In this document: positions 43,342 through 61,464 of the stretch, piece after piece
Position numbering within the stretch: the first letter of the stretch is position 1
How the letters are laid out: each line of letters begins with the position of its first letter
Assembly (NCBI GenBank): GCA_002269645.1
Contig: NIVC01000506.1
Coordinates: forward strand, 434,001-498,000
Length of the DNA stretch: 64,000 bases
Reading direction: 5' to 3'
From: Macrostomum lignano
Lineage: Eukaryota
Made by a program: the position numbers and the translations under genes
The notes under the pieces: generated by a model
What the model was told of the DNA's origin: nothing
Seen by the model: the letters and a program-made list of their open reading frames with translations, nothing else
Databases searched by the model: none

Positions 43342-43692
43342 AGTAGTATTTACGATACAAAATTGCCAGCAAACCGATCTCACCATTCAAACAATTTAAC
43401 CCTTTATCAGTGTGAAATGACTTGTTTTCCCTTCATTATCGCTCGTCTTCACTTCGCTCAACTCGCTTCGCTCATCCTCGCTTCATTTCGGTCAAACAAG
43501 TCATTTCACACTTACAACGATTAATTCTCTTTGAATGGTGAGAACACGCTCTCGTCGCTCGCTTTGGTTTGCTGGCAATTTTGTATCTTACCAAACTCTT
43601 CTAATCCTTCCAACTTTCTCCAACACTTCCAATTCTCTATAACCCCCCGCACGCGCCGCAGGCGCGAAGGGTCTTTTTCTGTTACTAAAAAT
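43342..43692 (+). repeat. Left terminal inverted repeat (351 bp)
   Basis: Reverse complement of 60062-60412; no mismatch noticed by eye. Confidence 0.95.
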
Positions 43693-43702
43693 AGAACAAA
43701 AA

Positions 43703-44113
43703 ATGACACACGTTACACATATGCAAAATCTGAATGAATTGCAGGTAGGAGAGCCAATTGAATACCGAGGTGAGGGGCTTTTTGATGTGGTTGGTACAGC
43801 AGCGAATTTCGTTAAAGACAATATGGGTCTTATAGGCCAAGCAGGCTCTGCAGCAGGCTCTATAACAAATGCTGTAAAAGGAGGAATTGAAGCAGCTAGA
43901 GCGGCAGAAGAACTAAAGAAATTGAGAGATTTTAACGACACCCTCTCACAAATAAAAGCAATAAAAGATTTGAAACTAGCGCAGGAAACAACTCAAGCCG
44001 CACAACCAACAGAAACCCCCACGAAAAGCACGCCAATAAGTAATAAAGATATTCAAGATTTTAATAAAATGTTAACCACAATTAAAGGCGGAAAAGGATT
44101 AAAAAAATTTTAA
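43703..44113 (+). CDS. Polinton hypothetical protein, 136 aa (possible virion core precursor)
   Basis: Clean ORF with an A-rich start context; C-terminal IKGG-KG resembles an adenain site. Confidence 0.75.
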   Translation: MTHVTHMQNLNELQVGEPIEYRGEGLFDVVGTAANFVKDNMGLIGQAGSAAGSITNAVKGGIEAARAAEELKKLRDFNDTLSQIKAIKDLKLAQETTQAAQPTETPTKSTPISNKDIQDFNKMLTTIKGGKGLKKF

Positions 44114-44123
44114 TAATATAAAA

Positions 44124-45110
44124 ATGGACACGGATAATGAACGGCTATATTTTATAGGAGAAATTGTAGACACTTTAGATTTGGATGATAACAAACATAG
44201 CCACACAATGTTAAAAAGATTGGATCGTTTAGGTAAAAAACTTGACTACGATATCGATACATTTAAACTTGCTGCAAAATATGCACAAGAAGGAAGGCCA
44301 ATATCCTTTAAGAATCGTGGTAGAAATTATAGGCTGACAGACTCCGATGTAAAATTTTTATTGGAGACTCACACTAAAAAGGACGGCGGATTGCTACCTA
44401 TTTTACCAATTCTTTTAGGCCTCGGAGCAGCCGGAGCAGCCGGTTTAGCTGGCAAAAGAATTCATGATAACCGAAAACAGCTAGCAGAATTAAAAGCAAA
44501 ACAAGGAGGAATATTACCACTAGCAACTTTATTACCAATAATTTTTGCAGGAATAGGAGCCGCTGGTGGAATAGCAGGTGGCGCAGCTGGAATCACAAAA
44601 GCAGTAAATGATAAAAAAGCTGCGGATGAAAAAGCTAAACGAGATGCAGAATTTCAAAGACAGCAAATAACACAGGACGCACAATTCAAACAGAAACTTA
44701 TTGATACCATTAATAGTAGTTCAGCAACAGCAGAGCAAAAAAGAAATGCAGAAGCTAGGTTAGCAGCCGGAAAAGGTTTACTCTTGCAAGGAACAAATCA
44801 CGGGAATGGTTTGGTACTAAAAGGAACAACCCAAGGAAGCGGAGTTGTCGCAGATAAACTACACGAGTTTGGCCAAACTTTAGAAAAAACGGGTGAGAAA
44901 GCTAAAGGATTTTTTGACAATATTGGAGCTAATTTTAGGCCGGCAGTTCAGAAGATTTTTACTAAGTTAGGTAAAGATTTTAACATCATTGAAAAACACG
45001 ATGGAAGTGGATTATATCTCGAAATGAGACCAAAAGCAGGTTCAGGAATTTTCTTAAATTCAAACGTTATGGGCAATGGATTGCTGTTACCAAAAGCAGA
45101 TCTCGAATAG
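44124..45110 (+). CDS. Polinton protein with adenovirus pX/core-like hydrophobic GG-(I/L)LP segments, 328 aa
   Basis: KDGGLLPILPILLGLGAAG and KQGGILPLATLLPIIFAGIGAAGG resemble adenoviral pX GGILPLLIPLIAAAIGA; repeated GxG-hydrophobic motifs at the C-terminus. Confidence 0.7.
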   Translation: MDTDNERLYFIGEIVDTLDLDDNKHSHTMLKRLDRLGKKLDYDIDTFKLAAKYAQEGRPISFKNRGRNYRLTDSDVKFLLETHTKKDGGLLPILPILLGLGAAGAAGLAGKRIHDNRKQLAELKAKQGGILPLATLLPIIFAGIGAAGGIAGGAAGITKAVNDKKAADEKAKRDAEFQRQQITQDAQFKQKLIDTINSSSATAEQKRNAEARLAAGKGLLLQGTNHGNGLVLKGTTQGSGVVADKLHEFGQTLEKTGEKAKGFFDNIGANFRPAVQKIFTKLGKDFNIIEKHDGSGLYLEMRPKAGSGIFLNSNVMGNGLLLPKADLE

Positions 45111-45194
45111 GCTCCTGGGGGGTGGGTCAGGACGGCTAAAACCTAAAATTAAAAAACCAATAATTCAAATATTGTATAAATTTTATTCTATAAA

Positions 45195-48100
45195 ATGGAA
45201 CAAAGAATGACCCCAGATCAGATTCGACAACTTCTTGCAAATGAGCGCCAACAGTTCAATCGATTACAAAGACAGATTGAACAAATTGAACAGCGCCAAA
45301 GACAACAACGCCGACAAAGAGCAAGAGAAAGACAGAGAGAAAGGCAGAGAGAAAGAGAAATACAAGACCAGCAAATAAATGCATTAGCAAATAATATAAG
45401 GGCAGAATATGAAATGAAGCGATTAATAGAAAAGGCTGAATATGAAAAAAGAATAGCAGAATTAGAAAAAAACCAAAAGAAACCCACACGTCGGAAACCT
45501 CGGAATAAATCGGATGAAAAACCATTAGATGAGTTTATTAGGGTTTATCGATTTGAACCAATGCAGAATGTCCTAGATTTTATTGAAACCCAGCTTTCAA
45601 ACGGATATGCTGTTGAAATTACTAATGCGAGGGTACAATATTTTTATAATAAAACCGGAGATGATCGTGAAGAGATTAATCAATACTTAGCAACATTTTA
45701 TAATATAAGCCAATTTCAAGCTTGGTTTAAGCATTTGGTAGAAAACTACGACATGAATTTAAGTGTGTTTTCTGGAAGACTTAAAATGACACCAAACGAA
45801 ATTACACTTAAACACGAAAGGTCAAAGCAGGGTATGGGAACAAATGTCATGTGTGAAATTGCAGAGTATAAAGATGAGTACTGTTACATACCTAGTGATG
45901 GAAATTGTTTCTACAAGTGTGTTCAGTTTATTTATGGTGATAAAGCCCCATACAAAGACGAATATGGTGCTTGGTTGTTCGACTCAAGAACCCAAAGAGG
46001 TTTAATGACAAATTCAAGAATTGGAAGATTCAATGAATATTTTAATCTTAATATAGGGCTGTATAACCCCAATAATCGTGGAATTGAACCAAAGTCTCAA
46101 AGAGGGATTCACCACGACTGGTTATTAATAAATTACTTTCACACCCCCGATTATCACATTGGTCATTATTGTCTTATATCTAATAAACAACGAGGAATCG
46201 CCCTCGAACGGATAAAAGACAATTATAAAGTTGTATATAAAAACCCAACGCTCGAAAATGTTAAGGAGCTAAAAATGTTCAACACACCTACAAATCCCAA
46301 TAAATCAAATGTATACATATTTGATTTTGAAACATATTTAAATTATAATCAACAAGCATGTCCGTATGCGGTTGGTCTTTTAAACTATAACGACTTTTCT
46401 AATAAGTGTAATGAAACCCCAGAGGAAATAAAGAAACTAACTAAGATCTTGATATCAGATCGCGGTTGTGATTTTCAAACAGATGGAGACAATATTGATC
46501 GTACCGAAGGTTCGCAACCAAAGGTTGACTGTGTTAGAAAAATGTTTAAATACCTTGGTACAGTTAGGTCAAAAAAGATTGTTTTGATCGCACACAACTC
46601 ATCCCGCTTCGATTCATACATACCACTATTTTGTAATATAAAACCAATTAAAATTCTTAAAACCCCAAGAGGAATATTATCAATCACTTTTGTAAACGAT
46701 TATATGTCAAAAGAGGTTAGAGCGTTTATAAACAAAGATAAGAAGAAGAACCATAAGGATTCGAAACAAACCATTACGATGCTTTGTTCATATCAACACG
46801 CTTCAATGAGTTTAAAAAAGTTTTGCTCATCAATGACAATTAGAGAGGATTTACGTAAGGCCTCAATGGTTCACGACATTACCGAACACGACTATTTAGA
46901 GCGCATGGACGAATGGTATGAATATTTACAATTTGATCTTATTTCTTTATGCGCCTGTATTCATAAGTATAACGAAATAGCATATGAAATTGGAGGAATG
47001 ACAATGTTCGATACTCTTACCTGTTCGAGTTTAACATTAAAATGTTGGTTTAAAGATTTTGTTAGAGTTGAAGACAAAATGAAACAATACCTAAAAACAG
47101 AAGAAAAAACTATTTACATTAAAAAAGTTGAAGAAATAATATCTCCGTTGAAAATAGAGGATTATTTTGACTTAAGCAAACTTGAAAAAGCAAAATACCA
47201 AACACTATTAAGAAAAGAATTTTCAGTTCACTCTCATACCAATCCTTATATACGAAGGTTTATGCGGGACGCAGTCAAAGGAGGCAGGGTATTTGCACTA
47301 ATAAATAAATATGAAAGCGACTGTTTTCAAACAATTGTAGACGTTGTAAAAGACCATTTAAAAATACCAACAAGCGACCCATGTGAGGTTATATCAACTT
47401 ATCTCAAAAGCGATATGGAAGAAAAAAAGAAAATCGCAATTAAACTAAAAAACCAATTGGGTACCGCATCAGATTGTTTAATGAATTTTGATGGAGTTTC
47501 GTTGTACCCATCTGCCATGTCTGATAAGGATAGTGAATATCCAAGAGCAGAAACAGCAAGAGTTTTTGATATAAGCGAGGAAAAAGATTTCTTGGCACAA
47601 TTTAATTCACAAACCTTTCGACCAAAAACAGCGGTTTTAAAGATTATGTATGAGAACCCAACTAGCGTTTTTCTTCAACATCTCCCATCAAAAGATAAAG
47701 AGAAATTTTATAACCCGGAAACAAAAGCAAACGAAACAAAAACATTAAATAGGTTTAGAAATGGAAAGGTAATCGACACCTTATGTTCCGTAGACATACA
47801 AGAAATTGTAAGAATGGGTGGAAAAATATTAAAGATATATAGTGGAATTGTATATGAAAAAAATTACGATTTCTCTCCGTTTCAGAATTATATTACAAAC
47901 CTTTTTGAAATGAGAAAAGTATTTAAAAAAGAAAATAACGAGGCAGGTTCTGAATTGGTAAAAACACTATTAAATTCATTATATGGCAAAACAGTTCAAA
48001 GAGACATTACATTCACAACACATCTCTGGAATTTGAATACATTAAAAACCGAATACGACGACACAATTAAGTCATATGAGAAAATATGTGACGATTTATT

Positions 48101-48812
48101 TTATGTTGAAAAAAAGAAAGACACACAAGAATATTTAGATGAGGATGATAATCCTATAACAGGTCTTTGTCCGGCACAATTAGGAATATTTATCTTAGCT
48201 CATTCAAGAAGGATCATGAATAATTTTATCACCTCTATAGATGGTTCAAAGACTCCAGAAATTTATTACGGCGATACGGATTCGTTATATATACATAAAA
48301 AACATTGGGACACATTAAATAAAAACGGACACGTCGGAAATAACTTAAGTCAAGGAAAAAACGATTATGGAGAGGGAGGAATTATATTCGGATATTTTAT
48401 CGCTCCTAAAATTAAATATTGTCTTTTATTGAAAGACGATTTTATTATGGAAGAGAAAAAAACATTTAAAGGATGTGCAAACGATAAGATTAATTTTGCA
48501 TCGTTTAAAACTTTATATGATGGACAGTCAATAAAAGTAAATAATAATGCTCCGTGGAAACGATCGTTTGAAGGTGGTATAACAATTCCTCAAAGCGGAT
48601 CAACAATATCAAAAACATATACCTCTACGATAAACACATTTAAAAGAGAAAAACCGGATAAAAACGGAGTTATGAAACCATTCTTTAAAAACTATTTTGA
48701 TGACAAACCACAGCATGAACATTCAATTGAATATTATAACAGTTTACTATTTGACGTTGACTATAATTGTTTTGAGTTCGATATTGATGAATTAGCACTT
48801 GAAAAAAACTAA
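45195..48812 (+). CDS. pPolB: Protein-primed family B DNA polymerase, 1205 aa
   Basis: ExoI IFDFET, ExoII AHNSSRFD, ExoIII YLQFDL, Pol A FDGVSLYPSAM, Pol B KTLLNSLYGK, Pol C YGDTDS. Confidence 0.97.
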   Translation: MEQRMTPDQIRQLLANERQQFNRLQRQIEQIEQRQRQQRRQRARERQRERQREREIQDQQINALANNIRAEYEMKRLIEKAEYEKRIAELEKNQKKPTRRKPRNKSDEKPLDEFIRVYRFEPMQNVLDFIETQLSNGYAVEITNARVQYFYNKTGDDREEINQYLATFYNISQFQAWFKHLVENYDMNLSVFSGRLKMTPNEITLKHERSKQGMGTNVMCEIAEYKDEYCYIPSDGNCFYKCVQFIYGDKAPYKDEYGAWLFDSRTQRGLMTNSRIGRFNEYFNLNIGLYNPNNRGIEPKSQRGIHHDWLLINYFHTPDYHIGHYCLISNKQRGIALERIKDNYKVVYKNPTLENVKELKMFNTPTNPNKSNVYIFDFETYLNYNQQACPYAVGLLNYNDFSNKCNETPEEIKKLTKILISDRGCDFQTDGDNIDRTEGSQPKVDCVRKMFKYLGTVRSKKIVLIAHNSSRFDSYIPLFCNIKPIKILKTPRGILSITFVNDYMSKEVRAFINKDKKKNHKDSKQTITMLCSYQHASMSLKKFCSSMTIREDLRKASMVHDITEHDYLERMDEWYEYLQFDLISLCACIHKYNEIAYEIGGMTMFDTLTCSSLTLKCWFKDFVRVEDKMKQYLKTEEKTIYIKKVEEIISPLKIEDYFDLSKLEKAKYQTLLRKEFSVHSHTNPYIRRFMRDAVKGGRVFALINKYESDCFQTIVDVVKDHLKIPTSDPCEVISTYLKSDMEEKKKIAIKLKNQLGTASDCLMNFDGVSLYPSAMSDKDSEYPRAETARVFDISEEKDFLAQFNSQTFRPKTAVLKIMYENPTSVFLQHLPSKDKEKFYNPETKANETKTLNRFRNGKVIDTLCSVDIQEIVRMGGKILKIYSGIVYEKNYDFSPFQNYITNLFEMRKVFKKENNEAGSELVKTLLNSLYGKTVQRDITFTTHLWNLNTLKTEYDDTIKSYEKICDDLFYVEKKKDTQEYLDEDDNPITGLCPAQLGIFILAHSRRIMNNFITSIDGSKTPEIYYGDTDSLYIHKKHWDTLNKNGHVGNNLSQGKNDYGEGGIIFGYFIAPKIKYCLLLKDDFIMEEKKTFKGCANDKINFASFKTLYDGQSIKVNNNAPWKRSFEGGITIPQSGSTISKTYTSTINTFKREKPDKNGVMKPFFKNYFDDKPQHEHSIEYYNSLLFDVDYNCFEFDIDELALEKN

Positions 48813-49145
48813 AGCATGTAATTGTTTAAGCATAATATCCATTTCAATTTCATATTTTATTGAGCACCAATTGTCCTCACAGTCGGTGGGGTAACTTAAA
48901 CATTCTTTTACTTTTTTCCTAAGTATTTTTATTCGTCTAACCAATCTATCTATTTCAATTTCAATTACTGTTTCAGCATAAACAATTGCAGATTTAATAA
49001 AACGTTTTCTTTTATCTATCTCATATCGGATGGGAAACATATCGTCCCCAAACTCATGATATTTATGAGATATAATTATATTTAATTTTTTATTAATATC
49101 ATTAAGTTCGCGCTCATTAGTGATAAGGATTTTTATTGTCTCCAT
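48792..49145 (-). CDS. Polinton hypothetical protein, 117 aa
   Basis: ORF with TAAGAAAATG context in a tightly packed gene array. Confidence 0.65.
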   Translation of the reverse strand: METIKILITNERELNDINKKLNIIISHKYHEFGDDMFPIRYEIDKRKRFIKSAIVYAETVIEIEIDRLVRRIKILRKKVKECLSYPTDCEDNWCSIKYEIEMDIMLKQLHALVFFKC

Positions 49146-49160
49146 TTTCTTATAAAAAAT

Positions 49161-49529
49161 TTAGTCTTCGTCGTCATCCTCCCAAACAGCCGCCAATTTT
49201 ACAGTCCTATCACTCTTTTTATTATTTGTTTGTTTTAGTTTAAATTGTAACCCACCCTCCATACTGTATTTCATAACAAACGCTTTAGGTTTATTAATAA
49301 CTAAAACTGGAAAATTTTTAACATCATTCCCACTTAGACATAGTATTGTTTGCCCATCTAATTGTAAAAATATCGATTGAAGTCCAATAAATTTAACCTG
49401 TCTCAAACATACAATATTATATTCTTTATTCTCCAACATATTGGGTGTGAGATAATTAATCACATTAGAATCGGTTTTGAACCAGCTCTCCATTTTTAAT
49501 CTAAAAAAATAACAAAAAATGAAAGACAT
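49161..49529 (-). CDS. Polinton hypothetical protein (likely start at MESWFK, about 110 aa)
   Basis: ORF; the internal ATG has the TAAAAATG context shared by the other genes. Confidence 0.65.
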   Translation of the reverse strand: MSFIFCYFFRLKMESWFKTDSNVINYLTPNMLENKEYNIVCLRQVKFIGLQSIFLQLDGQTILCLSGNDVKNFPVLVINKPKAFVMKYSMEGGLQFKLKQTNNKKSDRTVKLAAVWEDDDED

Positions 49530-50031
49530 TTATGAATGTAAAAAATGTAATGTGACTATGCATAGAGCTCAAACAGCAAACGGAGATATATATCATATGT
49601 GCTATTCATGTTCTAAAATATATCAATTTGAAAAAACAAAAAAGATTGAAAACTCATATTACTATTTTAAAAACACAATTTTAAGAAATCTTACAATGGA
49701 CATTTCTCATCCAATTTTAATTCCAGGAAATAATGTTTATTTATATAACAACTTTTTCCATTTAAATAAAGGAAAGGGATTAAGTTCGAAAGACTCTGAA
49801 AGGATTTTAATTTTAGTTGGATATTATTTCAATTTTCTTATACGAGAGAATACAAAGTTTATAAGGATAGGTAACATACCTAACGAAATGTTATTGAAAA
49901 AGTCATTGGAATTTTTATGTATTGATAAAAAATTTAAACCTAGGATCAGAAGAGAGTTACCACTTTGGGAAGAATATATAACTTATGCCTTAGAAAAATT
50001 AAACAACATTAAGTTCTACAGCACTACCTGA
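49519..50031 (+). CDS. Zn-ribbon protein (CxxC...CxxC), 170 aa
   Basis: CKKC...CYSC at the N-terminus. Confidence 0.65.
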   Translation: MKDIYECKKCNVTMHRAQTANGDIYHMCYSCSKIYQFEKTKKIENSYYYFKNTILRNLTMDISHPILIPGNNVYLYNNFFHLNKGKGLSSKDSERILILVGYYFNFLIRENTKFIRIGNIPNEMLLKKSLEFLCIDKKFKPRIRRELPLWEEYITYALEKLNNIKFYSTT

Positions 50032-50655
50032 TCGCGGGCTTTGTACACCCGATGCTATAGTTTCGGGTTCGTAAATACCTAATGTATCTATAGGTGGAGC
50101 TTTGGGTTTGTCCAAACGTAATTCTTTTAATTCTATATCAGTAAAAGTTTCAACATCTAAAATTCTATTTCGATCTTTTAAATATTTTTCATATAATTCA
50201 ACAGCGGTTGATAACTCGTGAATCGTTATCTCTCCATCATCCAATATTTTTTGCACATATAAATATAACTGATTTTTATATTGTTTAGCAACATCTCTTA
50301 ATGATTTATATTTTTCCTTTCTTTTTTTAAGATATAATTTAATTGCTAAAAGTATTAATAAGTTTCTGATTAATTCAAAACCTGATATTGAGCCAATTGA
50401 AATACCTAAAAATAATTGAGATAAATTAAGAGTTGGAATAGATTGTAAAATACCTAAAACGATTACACATAACATTGATAAACTTCCAAATCCAATATTG
50501 AAAAAATCCATATTTCTGATATGGTTTGAAATCCTTCTTACTTTTTTAGCATATAAATCATAATCATAGTTAATACGCTCAACATTACTTAACATGTGGC
50601 CTTTACGTTGGTTAAAATGGTCTCGTTCCCTTTTATCTGCTTCAGACACCGACAT
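49999..50655 (-). CDS. Two-TM membrane protein, 218 aa
   Basis: Two hydrophobic segments followed by a charged helix and an ILDDGEITIHE motif. Confidence 0.7.
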   Translation of the reverse strand: MSVSEADKRERDHFNQRKGHMLSNVERINYDYDLYAKKVRRISNHIRNMDFFNIGFGSLSMLCVIVLGILQSIPTLNLSQLFLGISIGSISGFELIRNLLILLAIKLYLKKRKEKYKSLRDVAKQYKNQLYLYVQKILDDGEITIHELSTAVELYEKYLKDRNRILDVETFTDIELKELRLDKPKAPPIDTLGIYEPETIASGVQSPRSGSAVELNVV

Positions 50656-50971
50656 TCTCGTCTATTTTTAATAGCACTAAAATGAATTCCCCGCGCTCTT
50701 TGGGGATTTGTCCCGAGCTCAATAGGTATTGTATCGGAGTGATTCTTTCTTTTTTCTCCCATTTAAATCCAATTTTCCAAAACTCTTGAAGTATAATATG
50801 ATTTTTTAACAATTTAATTAATTCTTGAAGTTTCTTATTATCCTGAACATTTACAGTACTAAATAAAAATTTGGTATGAGATTTGAATGTTTTTATATTT
50901 GATTCTTGTTTAGGAATAGGAATGATAACATTATTATTTTGTCTCATCGATGGTGTTCTACTAAAAGCCAT
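50642..50971 (-). CDS. Polinton hypothetical protein, 109 aa
   Basis: ORF with TATAAAATG context. Confidence 0.6.
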   Translation of the reverse strand: MAFSRTPSMRQNNNVIIPIPKQESNIKTFKSHTKFLFSTVNVQDNKKLQELIKLLKNHIILQEFWKIGFKWEKKERITPIQYLLSSGQIPKERGEFILVLLKIDENVGV

Positions 50972-50986
50972 TTTATATATAAATAT

Positions 50987-52858
50987 TTAGATTTGTACGG
51001 GTGGTTTTTCTAAATAAGCGGTAGAAGGAAAAACATAACCAAACGATGTGCTACCACAAACGGCTGCGCCACGAATAAAATGTGCAGCATCTGCTCCTCC
51101 AGTTCGAGCACCAAAACCCATAAGGGTTCCAGTCTTATCCAACGTTCCCCAAGTGCCACTATCATATGTGAAAACGTTCTGCCCAATGAGGGTATAAGAA
51201 TCGGCTGAAACATTGTATGAATTTAATTGATACCAAACCCTTTGATTTAAAATATTAATTTCAAATAAATGCCAATCGCCGTTATCAATATTTGCATAAT
51301 CTACCGTTTGATCTGCGTCAGTATTAACATCCGCGCGGCTTGATCCGTCTGATTTTTTATTACTCCATACAACGCCAAATTTATCATGCCACTCACTTGC
51401 AAAAACTATCAATCCGGCGTCTGTTGCTAAACCTGCCCCACTTTCAGTTGTTGGTCGTTCGTGACAATATGCATAAAACCAAACGGCATCTGCACCATCT
51501 CCTGCAGAATTGGCAACTCGGAAAAAGAAAGACGCAGATATATTTTGAAAATGTGTGAAATTAAATTGTAAAGCACCACTGACCCCACCAGTTTCACGAG
51601 TAATTCTAGCACCATTTTGATAATCGATATAAGAAGCGTCACCAATTAAAGAACCAACTGGATATATATCTCCAGCGGTTGTTGGATTTTGATATCCAGT
51701 CCAATTACAAATTACTGGCTCGAATAATGCGGCATCAATGGCGGGAATATTATCCAATTTATTTTTATCACCGGCAGACATTCTACCATTTGAAGTTGGA
51801 GTTGCTACCTGATCTACGTACGCCCGCGGGGTTGCAGATAGTATTTCATTTGGCCAATTAAGATCTTGAATTTCAACTCGGTGTTCAAATAATTGTATTA
51901 GACGAACCTCGATAGGTTGTGTAGCGGTGCCACCAGTTGGGAATAAAACGCTATAATATTTCCAAAAATTAACCGTTAAATTAGTTAACGCAAATGAAGT
52001 TGCTTGAATTGGTGATCCCGACGTTCGTAATACCGTCCATGCATCGGTAGCAACATTTTTTGCACGAACCGACCATCCCGATGGAATATCAATAGTTGCG
52101 CTGCCTGTAATTCTTAATTCATTTATTCTTCGATTATAACCTAAAAATTCAAATTGAATTTCCATATTGGTTGTGGTTCCGGTATTTGGTGACCATTGTG
52201 TCGCAAGGCTTCCATCTCCAACTCGAAAAGCATCGTTGGTATTTTCGGATGCTGTAAGAACAACATCTGGATTTGAAGTATTTGATGTAAGCGGCGTGGC
52301 AAAAATATCGGCGTCGGTTACATTAGCTCGAGCGTTGACCTGCCCTAAATTGACCGAGTCTGTGGCCTCTGTTCCAAATAATAAATTTGTTAATTTAAAA
52401 TTATTCATATTGATATTGCCGTTACGACTACCCACCTGATTATCGACATAGTTCTTATCAACTACTGAGTTATTCGTTGTAATTGCAACATTTATAATTC
52501 GATTGTTGTCCATATCTAAGGTTCCGGTTGCGGTGGCTTGAACATAACGCGAATCAGAATCAGTTCGAGAATAAGAATCAGTTATATCTCTTTTTAAATT
52601 TAACCCAGTGTCAACCTCTGATTTTGTATATGAATCGCTAATATCTCTTTTAAGATTTAATGAAGTATCGATTTCAGTTTTGGTATAGGAATCTGCAACA
52701 TTCCGTTTCAAATTTAGTTTAGTATCAACTTCACTTTTTTTATAACCTTCATCTTCATTAATATATCGATTATCTCCGAAGGTAACACTTATTCCACCAG
52801 ACGTACCACCACCAGTACTTGTTGTTCCGTTCCATGAGGGTGTTCCAGAAAATATCAT
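50987..52858 (-). CDS. Fibre/receptor-binding-like protein, 623 aa, with N-terminal shaft repeats and a C-terminal lectin-like (ConA/L-type) domain
   Basis: Repeats (Y.KSEVDT.LNLKR.I.DS)x3; phage-fibre-like LDMDNNRIINV and INMNNFKLTNL...DSVNLGQV; C-terminal SASFFFRV...GDGADAVWF...DNGDWHLFEINI. Confidence 0.7.
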   Translation of the reverse strand: MIFSGTPSWNGTTSTGGGTSGGISVTFGDNRYINEDEGYKKSEVDTKLNLKRNVADSYTKTEIDTSLNLKRDISDSYTKSEVDTGLNLKRDITDSYSRTDSDSRYVQATATGTLDMDNNRIINVAITTNNSVVDKNYVDNQVGSRNGNINMNNFKLTNLLFGTEATDSVNLGQVNARANVTDADIFATPLTSNTSNPDVVLTASENTNDAFRVGDGSLATQWSPNTGTTTNMEIQFEFLGYNRRINELRITGSATIDIPSGWSVRAKNVATDAWTVLRTSGSPIQATSFALTNLTVNFWKYYSVLFPTGGTATQPIEVRLIQLFEHRVEIQDLNWPNEILSATPRAYVDQVATPTSNGRMSAGDKNKLDNIPAIDAALFEPVICNWTGYQNPTTAGDIYPVGSLIGDASYIDYQNGARITRETGGVSGALQFNFTHFQNISASFFFRVANSAGDGADAVWFYAYCHERPTTESGAGLATDAGLIVFASEWHDKFGVVWSNKKSDGSSRADVNTDADQTVDYANIDNGDWHLFEINILNQRVWYQLNSYNVSADSYTLIGQNVFTYDSGTWGTLDKTGTLMGFGARTGGADAAHFIRGAAVCGSTSFGYVFPSTAYLEKPPVQI

Positions 52859-52868
52859 TTTTTACTGT

Positions 52869-53309
52869 CTATTTTATAGAGTCTAAAATAGTCTTAAATA
52901 CTTTGTGGTTTACACGAGCTTCATTCGAAAGTCGATATAAAAAATATAACGCTGCTTGTCCGCAATAACTTTTATCAAAGGTTTGAAACTGTTCGTGATG
53001 ATCTCCACATAAACGATTTTTAGTATGATTAAATTTATCTTTTATTTCCTGTAACGGAGGAAGCGCGTATGAATCAAAAAAATAAACAAGTTTAGGTTTG
53101 GAATAAACTGCCGACCAATGAGCCCCGTTTTCTTTTGTAGTTTCGATGTTGACAATGTAAGATCCATATTGTGGTAAGTCTTTTATCTCATCCCGCATCA
53201 CACATCTAAATGGTTTTATTTTTAACTGCCTCGCCCAATTTGTTAATTCGATATTGCTTGTTGTGTCTGTTCCATATCTTTGTTTAAAATCATCCCACGT
53301 CATGGTCAT
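52869..53309 (-). CDS. PRO: Adenain-like (C5) cysteine maturation protease, 146 aa
   Basis: GAHW...FFDSY...FQ...SYCGQ, the His-Asp-Gln-Cys catalytic order. Confidence 0.92.
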   Translation of the reverse strand: MTMTWDDFKQRYGTDTTSNIELTNWARQLKIKPFRCVMRDEIKDLPQYGSYIVNIETTKENGAHWSAVYSKPKLVYFFDSYALPPLQEIKDKFNHTKNRLCGDHHEQFQTFDKSYCGQAALYFLYRLSNEARVNHKVFKTILDSIK

Positions 53310-53310
53310 T

Positions 53311-53481
53311 TTATGTTCCTGAAAAACTCTTGGTTTTAGTTAGTTTCGTAGGTGTGGGTTTTAACAGCTCCTTTCGGATTTTTTCTGCCTGTAATTGTTT
53401 TAATTTTGTTAATTCGATTTCATAATTATCTTCAGCTTTTTTAACTTTTTCCGTTTGTTTTTTTATAGCATTGTTACCCAT
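53311..53481 (-). CDS. Small basic protein, 56 aa (MGNNAIKKQTEK...), below the ORF-track cut-off
   Basis: Manual translation; TAAAAATG start context; fills the gap between penton and protease exactly. Confidence 0.6.
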   Translation of the reverse strand: MGNNAIKKQTEKVKKAEDNYEIELTKLKQLQAEKIRKELLKPTPTKLTKTKSFSGT

Positions 53482-53525
53482 TTTTACTATGGGAAACGGA
53501 CGATGTCCTCGAACCTTTGGTTCGG

Positions 53526-54311
53526 CTAAACCTGTTTTATACGTAAAATTACTGTTATTGATTGCCCACCAAAACTTATTAATCTATCGGTTTCATCTAC
53601 AATCCTAATATAAATTGATTGAACACTATATTGATTTAATGGGTAATATATTGGGGTTTGGGGTGAAACAATCATTTTCTCTCCAATTGGAACAGCAAGA
53701 AATGGGATGGAATAAATAATTCCACGTTGAACCAAAACTCCATTATTATCTGTTATATAACCGCCGTTTGATATGTCGGTTGTTATATTAATTGTATTAA
53801 CACCACCCTCAATATTTCCAACTGTATCACCGGTGCTTGATGTGGTAACTATTCGGGAATTAAATCCAAGTATGGTTCTGAGTGAATTTGCAATTGTGAA
53901 ATCAACCTGATATCCGGATTCGAGTGATAGTGTGAATCTGCCAGATGGTAAATCAACCCCTATAACAATCGCGCCTGCTACCCAATCGCCGTTAGATGTT
54001 AATTCTCCTTCTATATAAGCATTCAAATCGGTATAAGAATATGCTCCTGGGTTAACGCTAAATGTTGTCCAATTGGCTCCGGAATCTTTAGAATATCTAA
54101 ATTGATTATTTGTTGCATTAATTAATTGAGGCATGTTAAAAACCGAAAATAGTATCAAACCTATTTGATAACTTAGGCTTTGATCAAGTTGTAACGGGTC
54201 GCGCAATTGAATACGTTGTTAACTGGTTGTCATTATAAACTGTAAGGTTGTACTAAATTTTAAATTAGTTCGATCTACCAATTGTTTTATAGTATTTAAA
54301 TTTGTAGTCAT
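53526..54311 (-). pseudogene. mCP: Minor capsid protein (penton, single jelly-roll) with an in-frame TAA at codon 31 (54219-54221)
   Basis: ATG at 54311 with TATAAAAATG context. The frame reads LQFIMTTS*QRIQLRDPLQLDQSLSYQIGL..., followed by INATNNQFRY, PGAYSYTDLN, VNTINITTDI, PQTPIYYPL and ISFGGQSITVILRIK, all typical of Polinton pentons. Confidence 0.85.
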
Positions 54312-54350
54312 TTTTATAGTGGGAAATTATTCGTACCGAAGGTACGCGTG

Positions 54351-55112
54351 CTATTCACGATCCTCATCGTCCTCTTTCATCAGATCTTTTAAGATTCGAT
54401 TTTTCCTTTCTAACCTTGGGTTGATATATATATGTTTGTATTGGCTATCATCCCAAATTTTTTTACACATACTTTTAAATGGTTTTGCATCCAACCCGGG
54501 ATTAAATCTAGCGTGTATATTTTGTAAATCATAATTATCTAAATCAAACATTACACAACAACTTGCATTCTTTTTTATAATCGATTCTAATTCTCTAAAG
54601 GACTGTGTTAGATAAAAAGCTCCAATTCCATCTCCTCTACCACTAACAAAAATTTCCTTTTGCAATTCTTGATCACCGTCATTAATACAATCATCAAAAA
54701 TAATTAGTGTTTTATCATGTTTTGGAATTTGATCATAGGCTAATCGGGTTGATACTCTAACAGTTGGGGCTCGTTCGGTGATGTTTTCTGGTTGTTGTGC
54801 CATTGTTTTACATAAATCCTCAATGTCATCGAGTGTAAATCGCGGATCGTCATCATCCTCATATTGCTCATATGCTCTTAACATTCTAAACAAGACATCT
54901 TTTTTTAATTTGTTTTTTAATCCATGTTTAAGAAATTCATAATATTTTATTCTAGGTTTGTTAGTATAAATTATTAAATTATTATAGTCTAACATTCCAT
55001 CTGTTGTTAATAAATCGTAAACAAAGTGTGTTTTTCCTTTACCTGATCCTCCGATTACTAAACAAAGAAAAGGATCATTTGGAAATATCTTATCGTTTTT
55101 TGCCTTTACCAT
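54351..55112 (-). CDS. ATPase: A32-like (FtsK/HerA) genome packaging ATPase, 253 aa
   Basis: Walker A VIGGSGKGKT, Walker B LIIFDD, and R..GIGAFYLTQ. Confidence 0.95.
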   Translation of the reverse strand: MVKAKNDKIFPNDPFLCLVIGGSGKGKTHFVYDLLTTDGMLDYNNLIIYTNKPRIKYYEFLKHGLKNKLKKDVLFRMLRAYEQYEDDDDPRFTLDDIEDLCKTMAQQPENITERAPTVRVSTRLAYDQIPKHDKTLIIFDDCINDGDQELQKEIFVSGRGDGIGAFYLTQSFRELESIIKKNASCCVMFDLDNYDLQNIHARFNPGLDAKPFKSMCKKIWDDSQYKHIYINPRLERKNRILKDLMKEDDEDRE

Positions 55113-55161
55113 TTTTAAAGAAATAATTTAAATAGGCGCGACGGTCGGAGACCTGCGCCGC

Positions 55162-56634
55162 CTACAGCGGGGCGTCCCGAACAATCGTGCCATCAGCTTT
55201 AGCAATTGACATATATTCCTCTAGAAACAATACGTGTGCGTCTATTGCCTGATTACCAGTTTTATTAATCTCTAACATATAATTAAGTCCAATATTGGCT
55301 ACGTTTTCTTTCTGTGCCGTTAGATCATAAACAACCACTGGATGAATGTTTAGAAACTCTGTGGGTGTGTACTGAGGGATGGCATACGCTTCATTTTTGG
55401 CATAATCTTGATAATATTTTATAAAATCATTAACATTATTATTTGCTATATTTAAATTTAGGGGGTCTTTAACCGGATAATATTGATCATCAACCTGCAG
55501 GCGGATATTCTGAACATTAAACTCGTTAATAGCTGCAGCCGCATTGTCTGTTGCGGTGGCTGCTTGTTCTGCTATGGCACCGGATTGAAGCCAATATAAA
55601 TCCCCATTTGCTCTTTTACTCCTTCTGTTTGTTATTTTAAACCAAACAAAAATATATCTCACCCGACGTTTTGATGTCAGTATTTGCCACTGGAATGAAT
55701 CCTGATTGTTATTAATGGTTCGCATAAAGTGTCTACGATTCAAATAAAATATTTCCTGATCATGCGTTAACTGATTATCGATGTGTTTTAAAAGTGGGGC
55801 TGTTGCCTCAATGGTTGGTACGACTAATTGAATTGAATCTATACGAACTGCTATATCGGTTGAAATTGAGGTTCCATAAAGTATCCTAGGCTGATATCCA
55901 CCAGATATTTGCAACTGTATCCCAAATTTTAATCCTTTCCATACCCGATTTGGTGAGAAAAACCCAAATAGTGGGAAGATTGAAAAGTCCTGCTCATATG
56001 CCGTTGCCGTGGTTAAAACTGCAACTGGGAATTTATTCTGACGATCTATAAAGCCGGTGTTAATATCTTTTGTATTAGTCATAGTGGTTACAACTGGAAC
56101 TATGTTTGTATTAAGGTAAGCAATTAGAGCTGCAGTATCTGCACCAGCTGCGTTTTGTACATTAGGGAAAACTACTGCTTGACCGTTACCTTTATCCGGC
56201 ATCCACCCAACATTATCACCAACTTGTTTTGATAAATAAGTATAATTTAAATGTTTCAAAACTCCATTAATCTCTGCGGGGTTTGATGATGTCTCAACCT
56301 CAGCACCATTAACAGTTAGTTGAGCTTGGGAAAAACATTTATAAAACCAATCATTTTCTATTATTATTCCGGATCGATCTGCGATATCTCCGGCTGCAAG
56401 AGCAGTTCCATCATTTCTAGTATACAACCATCTAACGCGGAAAAACGCATTTTTCATATCCAATATAGTGTTGGTTGCGCCGATGTCAAAAGTTACCGTT
56501 CCAGTAGTAAAGTTATTTGAATTATCACTTGTTGGTAGGGTATAATTTAAATCTCTTGCTTTGACCTCATTAATATACTGTCGGTGCTTTTTGAAATGAA
56601 ATTTATCACTCCACATAGTTTTTGTTTCAGCCAT
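55162..56634 (-). CDS. MCP: Major capsid protein (double jelly-roll), 490 aa
   Basis: Size, position next to ATPase/penton, and motifs FSQAQLTVNGAEVE, RYIFVWF, NIRLQVDDQYYP, HPVVVYDLTAQ. Confidence 0.9.
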   Translation of the reverse strand: MAETKTMWSDKFHFKKHRQYINEVKARDLNYTLPTSDNSNNFTTGTVTFDIGATNTILDMKNAFFRVRWLYTRNDGTALAAGDIADRSGIIIENDWFYKCFSQAQLTVNGAEVETSSNPAEINGVLKHLNYTYLSKQVGDNVGWMPDKGNGQAVVFPNVQNAAGADTAALIAYLNTNIVPVVTTMTNTKDINTGFIDRQNKFPVAVLTTATAYEQDFSIFPLFGFFSPNRVWKGLKFGIQLQISGGYQPRILYGTSISTDIAVRIDSIQLVVPTIEATAPLLKHIDNQLTHDQEIFYLNRRHFMRTINNNQDSFQWQILTSKRRVRYIFVWFKITNRRSKRANGDLYWLQSGAIAEQAATATDNAAAAINEFNVQNIRLQVDDQYYPVKDPLNLNIANNNVNDFIKYYQDYAKNEAYAIPQYTPTEFLNIHPVVVYDLTAQKENVANIGLNYMLEINKTGNQAIDAHVLFLEEYMSIAKADGTIVRDAPL

Positions 56635-56668
56635 TTTTTTAAGTTAAAAAAGTTTTTTATGTTAAAAA

Positions 56669-57340
56669 ATGAGTCAATTTATGGACGTTGATGGAGAGTT
56701 AGCGATTTATAAAGAGAAGCAAAGATATTCTGATTTTGTTAGAAATTTACAAAAAAGAAAGTTAGGAATACAATTAGCTGGCGAAAGATTTGCTGCTCCT
56801 TTTGTTAATCCTATTACGGGGAAAATTAGTGAACTAGAAAAAACAGATAAAGACCTTCTGGAAAAAATTGCTACGAATACTGAGCCAAAAGAGGATGAAA
56901 TTTTGGATGAGCCGCCTGCTTATGGTGTTGCTCATGCACAATTGAGAGTTGCAGAGATTAGACGTGCAGAAAGGAATGGAGTTGAACAATATCAGAGAGC
57001 TGCACCACAAAGTATTGCTGTGATGGATTTAGGTAATGATAATTATCGAATTGGTGGAGTTGATAAAAATCAGAATGAACTATATACAGAATTGGGTGGA
57101 GCGTTTAATATTATTATGAACCCTAGGGTAAAGTTTAACCCTGAATTATATACTAGAGATGAATTAGTAAGTGCAAAAATTTTTTATGATGAGTTGGGAA
57201 TAAGAGCTGCTAAAAATACCAGCTTGTATAAAAGGATTGTTGATTCTATAAATAACAAACCGGTCGTTGGTGAAGGATTTAAAACTCCTAGAAAACTTGT
57301 TTTAGCTGCTGCGAAAGCTGCTGGACATACTGGTGTTTAA
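56669..57340 (+). CDS. Polinton hypothetical protein, 223 aa
   Basis: Clean ORF, divergent from the MCP gene. Confidence 0.75.
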   Translation: MSQFMDVDGELAIYKEKQRYSDFVRNLQKRKLGIQLAGERFAAPFVNPITGKISELEKTDKDLLEKIATNTEPKEDEILDEPPAYGVAHAQLRVAEIRRAERNGVEQYQRAAPQSIAVMDLGNDNYRIGGVDKNQNELYTELGGAFNIIMNPRVKFNPELYTRDELVSAKIFYDELGIRAAKNTSLYKRIVDSINNKPVVGEGFKTPRKLVLAAAKAAGHTGV

Positions 57341-57367
57341 TTAATTGTTAAATTTATTTTTTATAAA

Positions 57368-57931
57368 ATGGATGAAACAAAAATTTGTACTACGTGTAAA
57401 ATTGAGAAACCGATGACTAAAGAATTTTTTTGTTGGAGAAACGACACAAAAAAATTTAAAAATCTTTGTCGATCTTGTGAGAAAGTTAAATGTACTATGT
57501 GGAGAATAAACAATAAAGATAAATGTAATAAATATGCAAAAAATAAATATCACACTGATGAAAATTACAAACAGATTGTTTTAATTAGAGGTAGAATAAA
57601 TTGGGCATTGAGAACTTTTCATGACAAACATTATATCTCCTATCTTGGTTGCACAAAAGAATTCTTTTTTGATTGGTTAAATTTCACAAGAAATTATTAT
57701 GTGTCAAAAGATTATACTGGAAAATTAGATATTGATCATTTCATTCCCGCTTCTTCATTTAGTTACAAAGACGAAGATCAGATTAAAAAGTCTGAAAATT
57801 GGAGAAATAAAAGATACTTAACTAGCGTAGATAATAACTATAAAAAAGTTCAACAACCAACCATTGAAGAGTTTGCAAAACAATTGGTGCTATCATGTAT
57901 TTTTAAGGCTATTAAAAATGAGCAACCGTAG
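57368..57931 (+). CDS. Free-standing His-Me finger (HNH / endonuclease VII-like) nuclease with an N-terminal CxxC..CxxC Zn finger, 187 aa
   Basis: KICTTCKIEK...CRSC Zn finger; RGRINWAL..YLGC....WL; LDIDHFIP.SSF...NWRN......DN pattern, as in NCLDV/phage HNH-type nucleases. Confidence 0.75.
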   Translation: MDETKICTTCKIEKPMTKEFFCWRNDTKKFKNLCRSCEKVKCTMWRINNKDKCNKYAKNKYHTDENYKQIVLIRGRINWALRTFHDKHYISYLGCTKEFFFDWLNFTRNYYVSKDYTGKLDIDHFIPASSFSYKDEDQIKKSENWRNKRYLTSVDNNYKKVQQPTIEEFAKQLVLSCIFKAIKNEQP

Positions 57932-59510
57932 GTTCGACCAATTAGTATTTGAAGGAGGATTTTTAGATGTTCAAAAAGGATTAACAAGCTTACCGAGTAT
58001 TTTTACTACTGGAAAGTATACAAATGAATTACACCTGCCGTCGTATAATTTCACAGGTTACCCAGTGGCCTGAGTGAGGAAGCCAATGTCCTTGCTAGTC
58101 ACTATTTGTGGCGACATCTTCAAATTGCGTGAAACCCGTCATACAGCTTCAAGTACCACTTCAATTGAGAAATCTTTTGAAGGAACAGAGGTAACTCCTC
58201 TTCCCAACGGTAACAAGCTTGAAGACAAGGTGGCAATGCGCAGCCAAGCTCCTAAGTATTTTAAATATAAGGAGAAGGTTCAGAGAGCAGACGGAGATGG
58301 GCGGTAATCATCGCCGCTTAAGGTGTGCTCCAGCCTCTTTCGAAAGATTGAGGGTAAACTGCCGGGGACTCGCTTAGATTTGAGATTAAATCCTGACAAT
58401 ACTCCAAAATCTGATTCAATTCCAATAAATGGTATTGACTGGTTAGCATATTATCATGACTTAGCATACAGAGATGCTGACAAGAACCCACCCGAGGAAG
58501 CATTAAGATTAAAACATGAAGCCGATCAAAAAATGATTCAAGGATTAGATAACTTACAAGAATTATCGGTAAGCCAAAGATTAACTCGGTGGATGGTTAA
58601 AAAAATCTTGCAATCTAAAGTTAAATTTGGTTTGGGAATTAATTACAACCAACATGGAAATAATTGTGTGGAATGTTTGTTATTAAGTGGCAGTGGGTTA
58701 AGTTCTGATGAGGCAAAGATTCTTCATAAAGAATATCGAAAACCTAAATTTTATAGAAAAATCATGAACTTCAAAAAAAATGAAATTTGGTATGCTGATT
58801 TAATGTCAATGCCAAACGATAATGGATATAAATATATCTTAACCATATTAGATGGTTTTACTCGATATGCGTGGGCTGTTCCTTTGAAATCTAAAAAAGG
58901 AGAGGAAGTTGCTGCTGCTTTTAGAAGTCTTGGAGAAAAAAGCGAACGGTTGTGTGTTGATGAGGGAAAAGAATTTTACAACCCTCATATGTATAAATTA
59001 TATCATTTTGAAAAAGGACAAGAAAGGAAAAAGGACGCGAATGGGGAGTATATTAATAAAATTTATTCTATTTATGGAGAAAGTAAAAACGCATTAATAG
59101 AAAGATTTAATCGAACTTTAGGTAAGAAATTGTGGTTTCAGTTTAGTCTTAATGGTAACCAAAAGTGGGTAAAAATATTACCAGACGTTGTGAAAGATTA
59201 TAACAATTCATATCATTCGGCAATAAAGATGGCTCCTCAACAAGCTTATATCAGTCCTGAAAACGTTAAAGTTACTTTTGGAAAATTTGAAAAAAATAAA
59301 ACTAAAGGTTTTAAGGTTGGTGATTCTGTTTATATCTATAAATGGAAAGATAAGTTTGAAAAGGGAAGAAAAGGATATTGGAAAATAAGTGAGATATTTA
59401 CTATCAGTAAAGTTTTAAATACCAATCCTACAACCTATATAATTGCTGATAAGGATGGTGAAGAAATATTGGGTTCTTTTTATGAGAATCAGATATTATC
59501 TGCAAACTAA
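57918..59510 (+). CDS. PLA2X-integrase fusion gene split by a group I intron. Exons 57918-58058 and 58362-59510; 429 aa after splicing
   Basis: The ligated exons read ELHLPSYNFTG|PGTRL...PINGIDWLAYYHDLAY...ADQKM (parvovirus-type PLA2: GPG Ca loop, HDxxY). This is followed by a retroviral-like integrase: WYADL, ILDGFTRYAWAVPLK, VDEGKEF, ALIERFNRTL, YNNSYHSAIKMAP. Confidence 0.92.
58059..58361 (+). ncRNA. Self-splicing group I intron, subgroup IC1, 303 nt, no internal ORF
   Basis: The 5' exon ends in U, paired U.G in P1 (CAGGU/GCCUG), and the intron ends in omega-G. P element AAAUUGCGUGAAA, Q AAUGCGCAGC, R GUUCAGAGAGCAG, S UUAAGGUGUGCUCC. P3 CAUCUUC/GGAGAUG; P7 G(A)GAGCA/UGCUCC; P9.0 AG/CU; P5abc with A-rich bulge and GAAA loop. 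Removal restores the frame and a conserved motif. Confidence 0.93.
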
Positions 59511-59520
59511 GTTCGAACAG

Positions 59521-59745
59521 TTACTTAAGACAACATGGTAGTAAATTTTTTATAACAAACAAAAACAATATTATTACTATTATTGTTACTAATATAATTA
59601 TTGACATTTGTTCAACTGTTATCAAACTTAAATTTTCATTAAGTTCATTAATCGGCACATTTCCGATGTAGGAATAGTTTACCTTCATTTTTTTATATAT
59701 ATTTTTCATAATAAATGTCGTTTCTGTTATAGAATAATAATTCAT
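59521..59745 (-). CDS. Small single-TM protein, 74 aa
   Basis: Hydrophobic IIILVTIIVIILFLFVI segment with C-terminal CC. Confidence 0.6.
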   Translation of the reverse strand: MNYYSITETTFIMKNIYKKMKVNYSYIGNVPINELNENLSLITVEQMSIIILVTIIVIILFLFVIKNLLPCCLK

Positions 59746-59748
59746 TTT

Positions 59749-60063
59749 TTACATAAAAATTTCAATTTCATTCTCAGAATCACTGGTTTCATATGAACTA
59801 TTTGTTGATTCGGAATCTGTTGATCTAACCTCCCAATCATCTGAATTTAAATAATCTCCAAGTTGAAATATTAACTCCCCCTCTTGTTCTAAATCATACA
59901 TCCCATCCAACTCTAATGGATAAAGTTTTAGGTCATGCTTGTCGTCATATTTTAAATAAACTTCATCAATTATTCCATTCAAAATATGTTGTTTTATTAT
60001 CTCTGCATTTTTAGCAACAGTCTCAAAAGTATCACTAACAGAAAAGGTGTAAACTCGGCTCAT
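59749..60063 (-). CDS. Acidic hypothetical protein, 104 aa; its ATG lies at the inner edge of the right TIR
   Basis: Clean ORF with CTAAAAATG context. Confidence 0.65.
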   Translation of the reverse strand: MSRVYTFSVSDTFETVAKNAEIIKQHILNGIIDEVYLKYDDKHDLKLYPLELDGMYDLEQEGELIFQLGDYLNSDDWEVRSTDSESTNSSYETSDSENEIEIFM

Positions 60064-60412
60064 TTTTAGTAACAGAAAAAGACCCTTCGCGCCTGCGGCG
60101 CGTGCGGGGGGTTATAGAGAATTGGAAGTGTTGGAGAAAGTTGGAAGGATTAGAAGAGTTTGGTAAGATACAAAATTGCCAGCAAACCAAAGCGAGCGAC
60201 GAGAGCGTGTTCTCACCATTCAAAGAGAATTAATCGTTGTAAGTGTGAAATGACTTGTTTGACCGAAATGAAGCGAGGATGAGCGAAGCGAGTTGAGCGA
60301 AGTGAAGACGAGCGATAATGAAGGGAAAACAAGTCATTTCACACTGATAAAGGGTTAAATTGTTTGAATGGTGAGATCGGTTTGCTGGCAATTTTGTATC
60401 GTAAATACTACT
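60062..60412 (-). repeat. Right terminal inverted repeat (351 bp)
   Basis: Reverse complement of 43342-43692. Confidence 0.95.
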
Positions 60413-61464
60413 ACGTAAATACTGCAACTCTCTTCTCTATATTAATTTCAACATCTTTGAAAACCGACAACGCTAATTTGTTGACTTACTGTAAGTCTAT
60501 GGTCGAGATTCTGCTACATTTTTATTCATAAATTTTGTTTCCATTGTCTGTGTTTAACAGATGTTAAAGCTAATATAAAGAAGAGAGTTGCCGCTATAAA
60601 ACTGTGCAAAATTATGCTATTAGAATCATCAGAACGAGAGATATAACCAAGAGTAACCCTACTTTTGGGACAGCCCTTTGAGGGACCTACTTGTATAAAT
60701 CACGAAGGCCGAAGGATATTCTTGCGAGCCGAGGACCATTGATTGCAGCCGAGGATATTCTAACCATAGACTATGATGAATTAAACGGCGTTTATCATAT
60801 AATAATCCATAGAAATAAAGACTTTCCGTGACAATATTTGCATTCTCCGGGATTTTATTTGGTAATATTCAATAAACTCGTAATATCCTAGTTTTTGTTA
60901 AAAATTACCACAGACAACACATTCTCGGCTCAGAATAGTACAATTTTCAACGATTAAATAAGCAATCGTATTTTATATACACTATATATACACAATATCT
61001 CCCCTACTTTGAACATTAAATAAAGGCTGTCACCACTTCAACTCTCTGTTCAAATTCAACGCATTATCCAGGTACAAATCTCCGGTGGGCCTTGGGTTCT
61101 GTTGTAGACCAATTCCTGGTCAAGAACCGATCTCTTGACGAAGGCTTGACCAGAGCTGGCTTGTCATCAGTCGTTTCTGGAGTCGAAGAGACATCGATTT
61201 TATAATCCTTGTCTGCAGGAGAATCTTATAGAAATTTTTTTGATACTCGGTTGGTTGTTTTTGTTTCAATCCCCTTTGTACTCGTCATTCCGAGCTTTGA
61301 TGTCGCTCTGTCGAGTCATGGCTCGTCCCTTAGGAGTTTCCTCCTAGACTTCCTGTCGAACTCTTAAAGAATAGCATTCCTGGAGACTCCTGTTGCTTGA
61401 ATTGAAGATGATCTGTAGCGGTACAGTAGCCGTCCAAGCTTTTACTTCAGGTGTTTTTACCCGA

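Follow-up and report, generated by a model that had tools for sequence, protein, structure and literature searches.

Collaborative homing is described for cyanophage S-PM2, where the nuclease F-CphI is paired with an intron-containing psbA and the arrangement is defined by the intron preventing self-cleavage (available portions of PMC6083498, PMC3984707 and PMC2988022). In phage T4, mobE nicks the 5' part of nrdB and mobilizes an intron in trans, so that gene and intron move together (PMC2790892, in the text accessible). Bodo saltans virus carries endonuclease-encoding group I introns viewed as weapons against related viruses; its introns mask a target in an essential gene, and those without an open reading frame (ORF) rely on a nuclease supplied in trans (PMC5871332, in its accessible part). 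Polinton-like viruses of protists, found integrated in eukaryote genomes, have RF00028 introns of 309-376 bp and free-standing HNH or GIY-YIG genes (PMC12220804, in the sections available). The locus analyzed here lies in a 64,000-nucleotide stretch of Macrostomum lignano DNA (the window; GenBank assembly GCA_002269645.1, contig NIVC01000506.1, positions 434,001 to 498,000 of the forward strand) and belongs to a 17-kb Polinton-like element. Its PLA2-integrase gene is split by a group I intron that lacks an ORF and preceded by a slot that holds either of two nuclease-like genes, one HNH-type and one Eco47II-like. The best overall explanation, which is given a modest preference, is that the intron hides a GGNCC site from the Eco47II-like enzyme and that the HNH protein is an alternative homing endonuclease acting near this site.

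Compared with F-CphI and psbA, the setting is a eukaryotic integrating virus in which two unrelated nucleases alternate in the slot. Intron-less copies with the HNH gene exist, and the partner with the closest link to the site resembles a restriction enzyme and has a predicted target of 4 bases. The likeness to T4 mobE is a free-standing HNH gene upstream of an intron-bearing gene; unlike mobE, the HNH gene has a candidate target drawn weakly from haplotypes, and the intron of this Polinton family (family A) has no defunct ORF. A Bodo saltans virus 'intron encoded endonuclease' is among the matches of the HNH model, whereas that system belongs to a giant virus with HNH and GIY-YIG enzymes of long sites, and genome-wide loss of a short word is not described in the accessible part of its report. 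The introns of the protist Polinton-like viruses come only from Paulinella, Desmodesmus and Rhodomonas and lie in a short gene upstream of the major capsid protein gene, with no nuclease partner or target named in the sections available. Eco47II, EcoO109I and AvaII resemble the alternative slot gene in Pfam family, fold and the predicted GGNCC core. In contrast to these type II enzymes, the Eco47II-like gene can sit within a group I intron, and protection is apparently through site loss and the intron; no methyltransferase family matched among the ORFs scanned, several of which are unassigned and not all of which were run against every library. The portions available of PMC11296320, PMC3671162, PMC3424549 and 10.1101/2023.08.22.554363 report neither a Polinton intron nor a nuclease-intron pairing. 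In the literature covered, whose scope excluded subscription journals and supplements, group I introns were found only in protist Polinton-like viruses and none had an Eco47II-like partner.

The PLA2-integrase gene consists of exon 1 (57918-58058, plus strand; 141 nt, 47 codons) and exon 2 (58362-59510, plus strand; Pfam rve E = 1.7e-7, Phospholip_A2_4 E = 0.01). The 303-nt intron between them (58059-58361, plus strand) splits GGT^CC: exon 1 ends ACAGGT with a Gly codon GGT, and exon 2 opens CCGGGG with a Pro codon. Natural intron-less copies read G-P-G-T-R at the junction and pass the Pfam cut-off for Phospholip_A2_4. Gly-Pro codons always spell GGNCC, the Eco47II site. GGNCC spans the insertion site in all 24 intron-less junctions listed and is absent at intron junctions. 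The predicted Eco47II-like target, a specificity deduced from its relatives, lies across the insertion site, and the intron breaks it up.

The deduction rests on family and fold. All 11 aligned Eco47II-like members match Pfam RE_Eco47II (PF09553). The best solved fold for the Eco47II-like model is EcoO109I (Z = 9.9 over 166 residues; the next is 6.9), and AvaII also ranks. EcoO109I recognizes RGGNCCY and AvaII recognizes GGWCC. The PF09553 match together with a PD-(D/E)XK fold nearest to enzymes with a GGNCC core places the protein in this family, of which one Eco47II homologue is tied to GGNCC (PMC10305163, in the part available).

GGNCC is missing from the element itself. None occurs in the window element (43342-60412), where ~19 are expected, and none in any of four family-A intron-plus bodies (17-19 expected each) or in the one family-B intron-plus body (18 expected). 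Three intron-less bodies hold 1, 1 and 2 copies, the insertion site being counted in each. Codon shuffles on both strands gave expectations of 34 and 31 against 0 and 0 observed, and none of the 60 shuffles fell to such counts. Among words with an expectation of at least 8, all but GGNCC and its sub-words are present. This loss could have been driven by a host or helper-virus nuclease, with the Eco47II-like gene having some other specificity. Intron-less family-B copies without a nuclease match are also GGNCC-free except at the site (1 versus 12 expected), and related introns are found in giant-virus contigs, as this alternative would predict. The shared purge of intron-less and nuclease-bearing copies is explained by their forming one gene pool. 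The family, the fold and the missing word all agree on GGNCC for the Eco47II-like gene, and four giant-virus loci do contain GGNCC (1-3 each), which makes an external nuclease very improbable as the cause. A third PLA2-like family (loci L111-L113) is intron-less with GGNCC at the site and has no clear Polinton context in the DNA fetched.

Family B is a second Polinton family with ~57% PLA2 identity and the same intron. Here an Eco47II-like ORF lies inside the intron, in the loop of the P2.1 hairpin (58098-58112, plus strand, in the window copy), in 18 of the 20 lower-identity matches fetched and in L076. Another 18 family-B copies are intron-less, with GGCCC at the site and no nuclease match in the nearby DNA fetched. 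Intron-plus and intron-less family-B alleles have differing codons beside the site, the pattern expected from short co-conversion. In L155, an independent metagenome contig, the intron and its site are the same, an Eco47II-like ORF is embedded in the P2.1 loop, and 1.3 kb contain no GGNCC. Six of the first nine database relatives run through into the intron core.

A search of the organism's own genome (764 Mb) gave 137 5' junctions of this intron type (type 1) and 130 HNH matches. Among the best-scored 150 of 498 PLA2 exon-2 candidates, the HNH gene was upstream in 100 and not in 50, and most of the family-A loci in the latter group have another gene, the Eco47II-like ORF of 167 aa, in the same slot. 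Family-A copies with a readable exon 1 (n = 115) comprise 82 with HNH and 33 with the Eco47II-like gene; ~20 further HNH loci, largely fragments, lie outside this table. Compared by hhalign, the two proteins show no relationship (probability 0.05). A 223-aa ORF (56669-57340, plus strand, in the window) forms the left flank of the slot and is found upstream of either gene. The flanks of the two slot types have haplotypes in common, indicating clean cassette exchange, and neither the gene upstream nor either of the two exons shows a fixed difference between slot types. The Eco47II-like ORF is intact in 42 integrated copies.

Two observations anchor the proposed mechanism: one slot with common flanks is occupied by either the HNH or the Eco47II-like gene, and GGNCC is missing from the elements apart from the intron site. 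The Eco47II-like protein would cut GGNCC in rival intron-less elements, and perhaps in host or helper-virus DNA, while its own element would be protected by site loss and the intron; no methyltransferase was found among the ORFs scanned. The cut would be repaired from an intron-plus template and the intron would spread, with the nuclease gene free-standing in family A or intron-borne in family B. Taken jointly, cutting and repair of this kind are held to be highly probable. The intron is likely to hide the one GGNCC site from the Eco47II-like enzyme, judging from the junctions and the missing word, and this enzyme is a likelier reason for the intron than HNH. The Eco47II-like-intron pair agrees with collaborative homing in each comparison run, including the lack of nuclease-plus, intron-less copies (0 of 33 in family A, a count of low power), and the system appears to work in that manner.

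The sequence-only reading of this locus had instead cast the HNH-like gene as the partner of the intron. It described an ORF with a Zn-finger and an IDH...N...N motif that overlaps the ATG of the PLA2-integrase gene and ends about 130 bp before the insertion site. These features were confirmed. The ORF (57368-57931, plus strand) encodes a 187-aa Zn-ribbon protein with C7/C10/C34/C37 and D123-H124...N147...N156, overlaps the ATG at 57918 and stops 127 nt before the intron. The beta-beta-alpha-Me fold that had been anticipated is predicted by the AlphaFold2 model (pLDDT 95.8): strands 120-124 and 148-152 and helix 153-159 bear the D-H...N...N residues, which are invariant or nearly so. H124, N156 and K159 are invariant across 80 aligned sequences, and D123, H124, N147 and N156 are retained in 30-31 of 31 distinct whole copies. 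The top viral fold matches are Mimivirus L246 (E = 6e-9) and the Bodo saltans virus 'intron encoded endonuclease' (E = 3e-8), followed by many HNH proteins, phage ones among them. VIA fold matches include the N-terminal part of Hpy99I (Z = 5.5) and Cap5 (Z = 5.2). PHROGs matches are weak (endonuclease VII E = 7e-4, HNH E = 2e-3). No Pfam or NCBIfam family, no GenBank phage and no entry in a word-index protein search matched HNH; neither HNH nor the Eco47II-like protein had a PDB sequence match, and IMG/VR held no relative of HNH, the Eco47II-like protein or PLA2 exon 2. A HMMER search recovered 1632 HNH relatives at E<=1e-3. The catalytic half has a median dN/dS of 0.35, against 0.54 for the N-terminal half, and the gene is under purifying selection as estimated from the aligned copies. 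HNH is probably an active homing-type endonuclease.

A role for HNH in replication or packaging, or as a non-specific nuclease placed beside the intron by chance, has some basis in that HNH genes next to packaging genes are discussed for Polinton-like viruses (PMC12220804, in the sections available). The PDB fold matches, although HNH-type, are also weak and give no specificity (best Foldseek E = 0.11, with Cas9 HNH domains). Such a role is hardly credible for a gene that is absent from 33 of 115 family-A copies and was not found in family-B loci, and whose N-terminal half is mosaic and more variable. HNH relatives also sit in this intron lineage: 2 of 150 continue into the core of a homologous group I intron. 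One of them, P0007, and an Eco47II-like relative, P0173, end in an identical 46-residue intron read-through; therefore one intron elsewhere appears to hold either nuclease. From these protein tails, both nucleases appear to partner this intron lineage. In a quick HNH tree the own-genome copies form one group, and P0007 falls in the same weakly supported subfamily.

Whether HNH itself accounts for the intron turns on how the two occur together. The expected association held in one direction, with the intron present in 79 of 82 HNH copies, and failed in the other: the intron occurs without HNH in all 33 Eco47II-like family-A copies and in family B. In family A just three copies are intron-less. 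Each carries HNH, in two cases as a whole ORF with an intact D-H-N-N, and one is of a common subtype; therefore HNH appears not to need the intron strictly, although allele-specific immunity or a silent gene may account for these copies. The explanation that HNH cuts intron-less PLA2 across the insertion site, with the intron as immunity and the Eco47II-like enzyme as a second partner for the site, draws on the HNH fold and its purifying selection, on the 79 of 82 copies, and on HNH relatives within homologous introns, of which one shares its read-through with an Eco47II-like relative. Protection by the intron alone would also leave no fixed flank polymorphism between slot types, as observed, and one HNH subtype is found exclusively with a second intron type (13 of 13 copies, though these are kin). 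For the three intron-less HNH copies this explanation would need allele-specific immunity, and neither the GGNCC purge nor the position of the intron needs HNH to be explained. We consider it unlikely, while giving it more weight than the other rivals. Accordingly, the collaborative-homing pair suggested by the sequence-only reading is partly supported. A free-standing HNH-fold gene does adjoin an ORF-less intron, but the slot is not HNH-specific and the gene tied to the site by GGNCC is the Eco47II-like one.

HNH could also be a competitor or passenger in the slot that cuts the Eco47II-like gene or the slot edges, or that replaces a costly host-cutting enzyme while intron protection is kept. 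The clean cassette swap with common flanks, the lack of a fixed protective polymorphism beside HNH, the excess of HNH over Eco47II-like copies (82 to 33) and the same two-way swap inside an intron elsewhere (P0007/P0173) are in line with this proposal. It is nonetheless improbable: no target of this kind was identified in the sequence, purifying selection argues against a pure passenger, and many Eco47II-like ORFs remain whole in integrated copies.

Within the preferred explanation, the step least securely placed is the action of HNH, which may nick or cut a longer, allele-specific target in the 5' part of PLA2. HNH would then replace the Eco47II-like gene by co-conversion and could drag the intron along, like phage T4 mobE. 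No short word among the patterns scanned is absent only from HNH-bearing elements; HNH is therefore no cutter of short sites, in keeping with a long target. CCNGG was tried as its site and rejected, being only partly low in family A (7-11 versus 17-19) and not low in family B. A candidate target region lies at 58041-58049 (plus strand), -18 to -10 from the insertion site, where the exon-1 haplotype I-P-G-Y is rare beside HNH: it occurs in 3 of 82 HNH copies and 11-12 of 33 Eco47II-like copies, among copies that are kin. An exon-1 HNH target that does not depend on the intron is a tentative proposal from this skew. For HNH, a mobE-like role, with a 5' exon cut and the intron carried along, is the option that we lean toward with some hesitation over strict collaborative homing, which is rather doubtful; what remains is a target in the Eco47II-like gene or none.

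Several observations weigh against the preferred explanation. Cleavage and splicing in the model are predictions made from sequence. The host flank holds 82 GGNCC in 43 kb against 143 expected, and is thus low in the word without being purged. The free-standing Eco47II-like form falls below the Pfam cut-off (20.6 versus 25.9 bits), the intron form passing at 26.2, and identity to EcoO109I is 13%. The survey of the slot draws on the best-scored 150 of the 498 PLA2 candidates, and the difference in intron-less copies between HNH (3 of 82) and Eco47II-like (0 of 33) slots is not significant (Fisher p = 0.56). The P0007/P0173 link was read from the protein sequences. The I-P-G-Y skew comes down to 2 distinct haplotypes with HNH and 6 with the Eco47II-like gene. 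A similar skew exists at positions -117/-115, and therefore linkage alone could explain it; L126 is an I-P-G-Y HNH copy with the intron. Finally, the intron ends in A instead of G in 44 of 74 matched introns with the G-binding pair unchanged, which questions splicing in many copies.

A is the majority letter at the intron end also in contigs of four public runs and therefore is not an assembly error. Contigs from four public runs, presumed to be RNA, contained no intron-skipping joint, a result that is uninformative either way. The assignment of the window intron as ORF-less, made in the sequence-only reading, was borne out: Rfam RF00028 matches 58049-58352 with 65.8 bits (cut-off 50, E = 1.9e-14), and no nuclease ORF lies inside, the longest stop-free run being 77 codons across the three sense frames. 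The intron has a P1 (58054-58058/58068-58072) with a U.G at the 5' splice site, a P3-P7 core (P7, 58283-58289/58326-58331) with a G-binding pair, P2.1, a P5abc-like domain and a terminal G. We take its subgroup to be IC1-like. Across 10 aligned introns both sides changed in 30 of 58 pairs, including P3, P4 and P7; P7 was 100% paired, the G-binding pair was invariant in 10 of 10, and slid controls dropped to 40-50% paired. The structure was drawn on the window copy, a choice that favors this structure. Folding of the intron alone (z = -1.6) is uninformative because the ribozyme is pseudoknotted. Placing the 3' splice site at the Rfam end (58352) instead was rejected, since intron-less alleles read G-P-G and the frame of L155 would be lost.

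Another group I intron type, distinct from the first and scoring 42-43 bits with Rfam, uses the same 5' splice site in 23 of the 115 copies, at loci including L039-L042, L056, L057, L065, L084-L087 and L125. Its 3' junction is ambiguous and the codons that follow are recoded. Related ORF-less introns occur in four IMG/VR giant-virus contigs (L151-L154), in genes that presumably encode a major capsid protein and a late transcription factor, and the Polinton intron may derive from giant-virus introns of this kind. Recurring words such as GGTTCGA and TCGCGAACC appear in short insertions at slot edges, at the start of exon 1 and within the intron. Examples are window positions 57925-57935, the slot edges and P5 region of sister copies, and the 30-nt insert of a 333-nt intron form. 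At the family-B locus L078 (1325-1510) a stub of the intron's 5' end precedes a second start of the gene, this one intron-less, and the family-A locus L126 (1693-8730) has a 6.7-kb insertion within the intron.

The window element is bounded by 351-nt terminal inverted repeats (TIRs) at 43342-43692 and 60062-60412 with 100% complementarity, and these together with a protein-primed DNA polymerase B (pPolB), an rve integrase and a packaging ATPase mark it as Polinton or adintovirus-like. The pPolB gene lies at 45195-48812 (plus strand; Pfam DNA_pol_B_2 E = 1.7e-18) and the A32-like packaging ATPase at 54351-55112 (minus strand; Pfam Pox_A32 E = 5e-7). A probable major capsid protein of 490 aa (55162-56634, minus strand) is proposed from size and position; it has no family match above cut-off, and the protease gene, likewise putative, matched no family either. 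Degenerate inverted repeats of 82-93% complementarity at 43216-43334 and 60598-60715 lie outside the perfect TIRs and may be what is left of an earlier element at this position. No Pfam family matches the host ORF at 41779. The window pPolB had no tblastn match in five sister copies (L131, L133, L135, L138 and L140) despite common neighboring genes, and one of these encodes a different polymerase-like gene, in pieces. This pattern of matches is read as polymerase swapping inside one Polinton family. Family B (L143-L144) differs in gene order and has a primase-helicase (PriCT_2, D5_N, Prim-Pol) that the window element does not have.

The analysis contributes the identical stretch of intron read-through that follows members of both nuclease families, a table of 115 copies and, in exon 1, a candidate target region. 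As a whole, the locus has about an even chance of being a methylation-free restriction system in an integrating DNA virus, built from a GGNCC cutter, complete loss of the word and a ribozyme placed over a Gly-Pro site. In such a system HNH would compete for the slot, both beside and inside the intron, and free-standing and intron-encoded stages of collaborative homing would coexist with two nuclease families and one intron lineage. If true, collaborative and trans homing would extend from phages to a nuclear-integrating eukaryotic virus. A short-site restriction-type enzyme would then act as an intron mobilizer, which is possible because the genome has been purged of the site. The presence of free-standing and intron-encoded forms of one nuclease in one host genome makes a route to mobile introns testable with natural alleles. 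It would also imply that these Polintons meet and recombine as replicating viruses.

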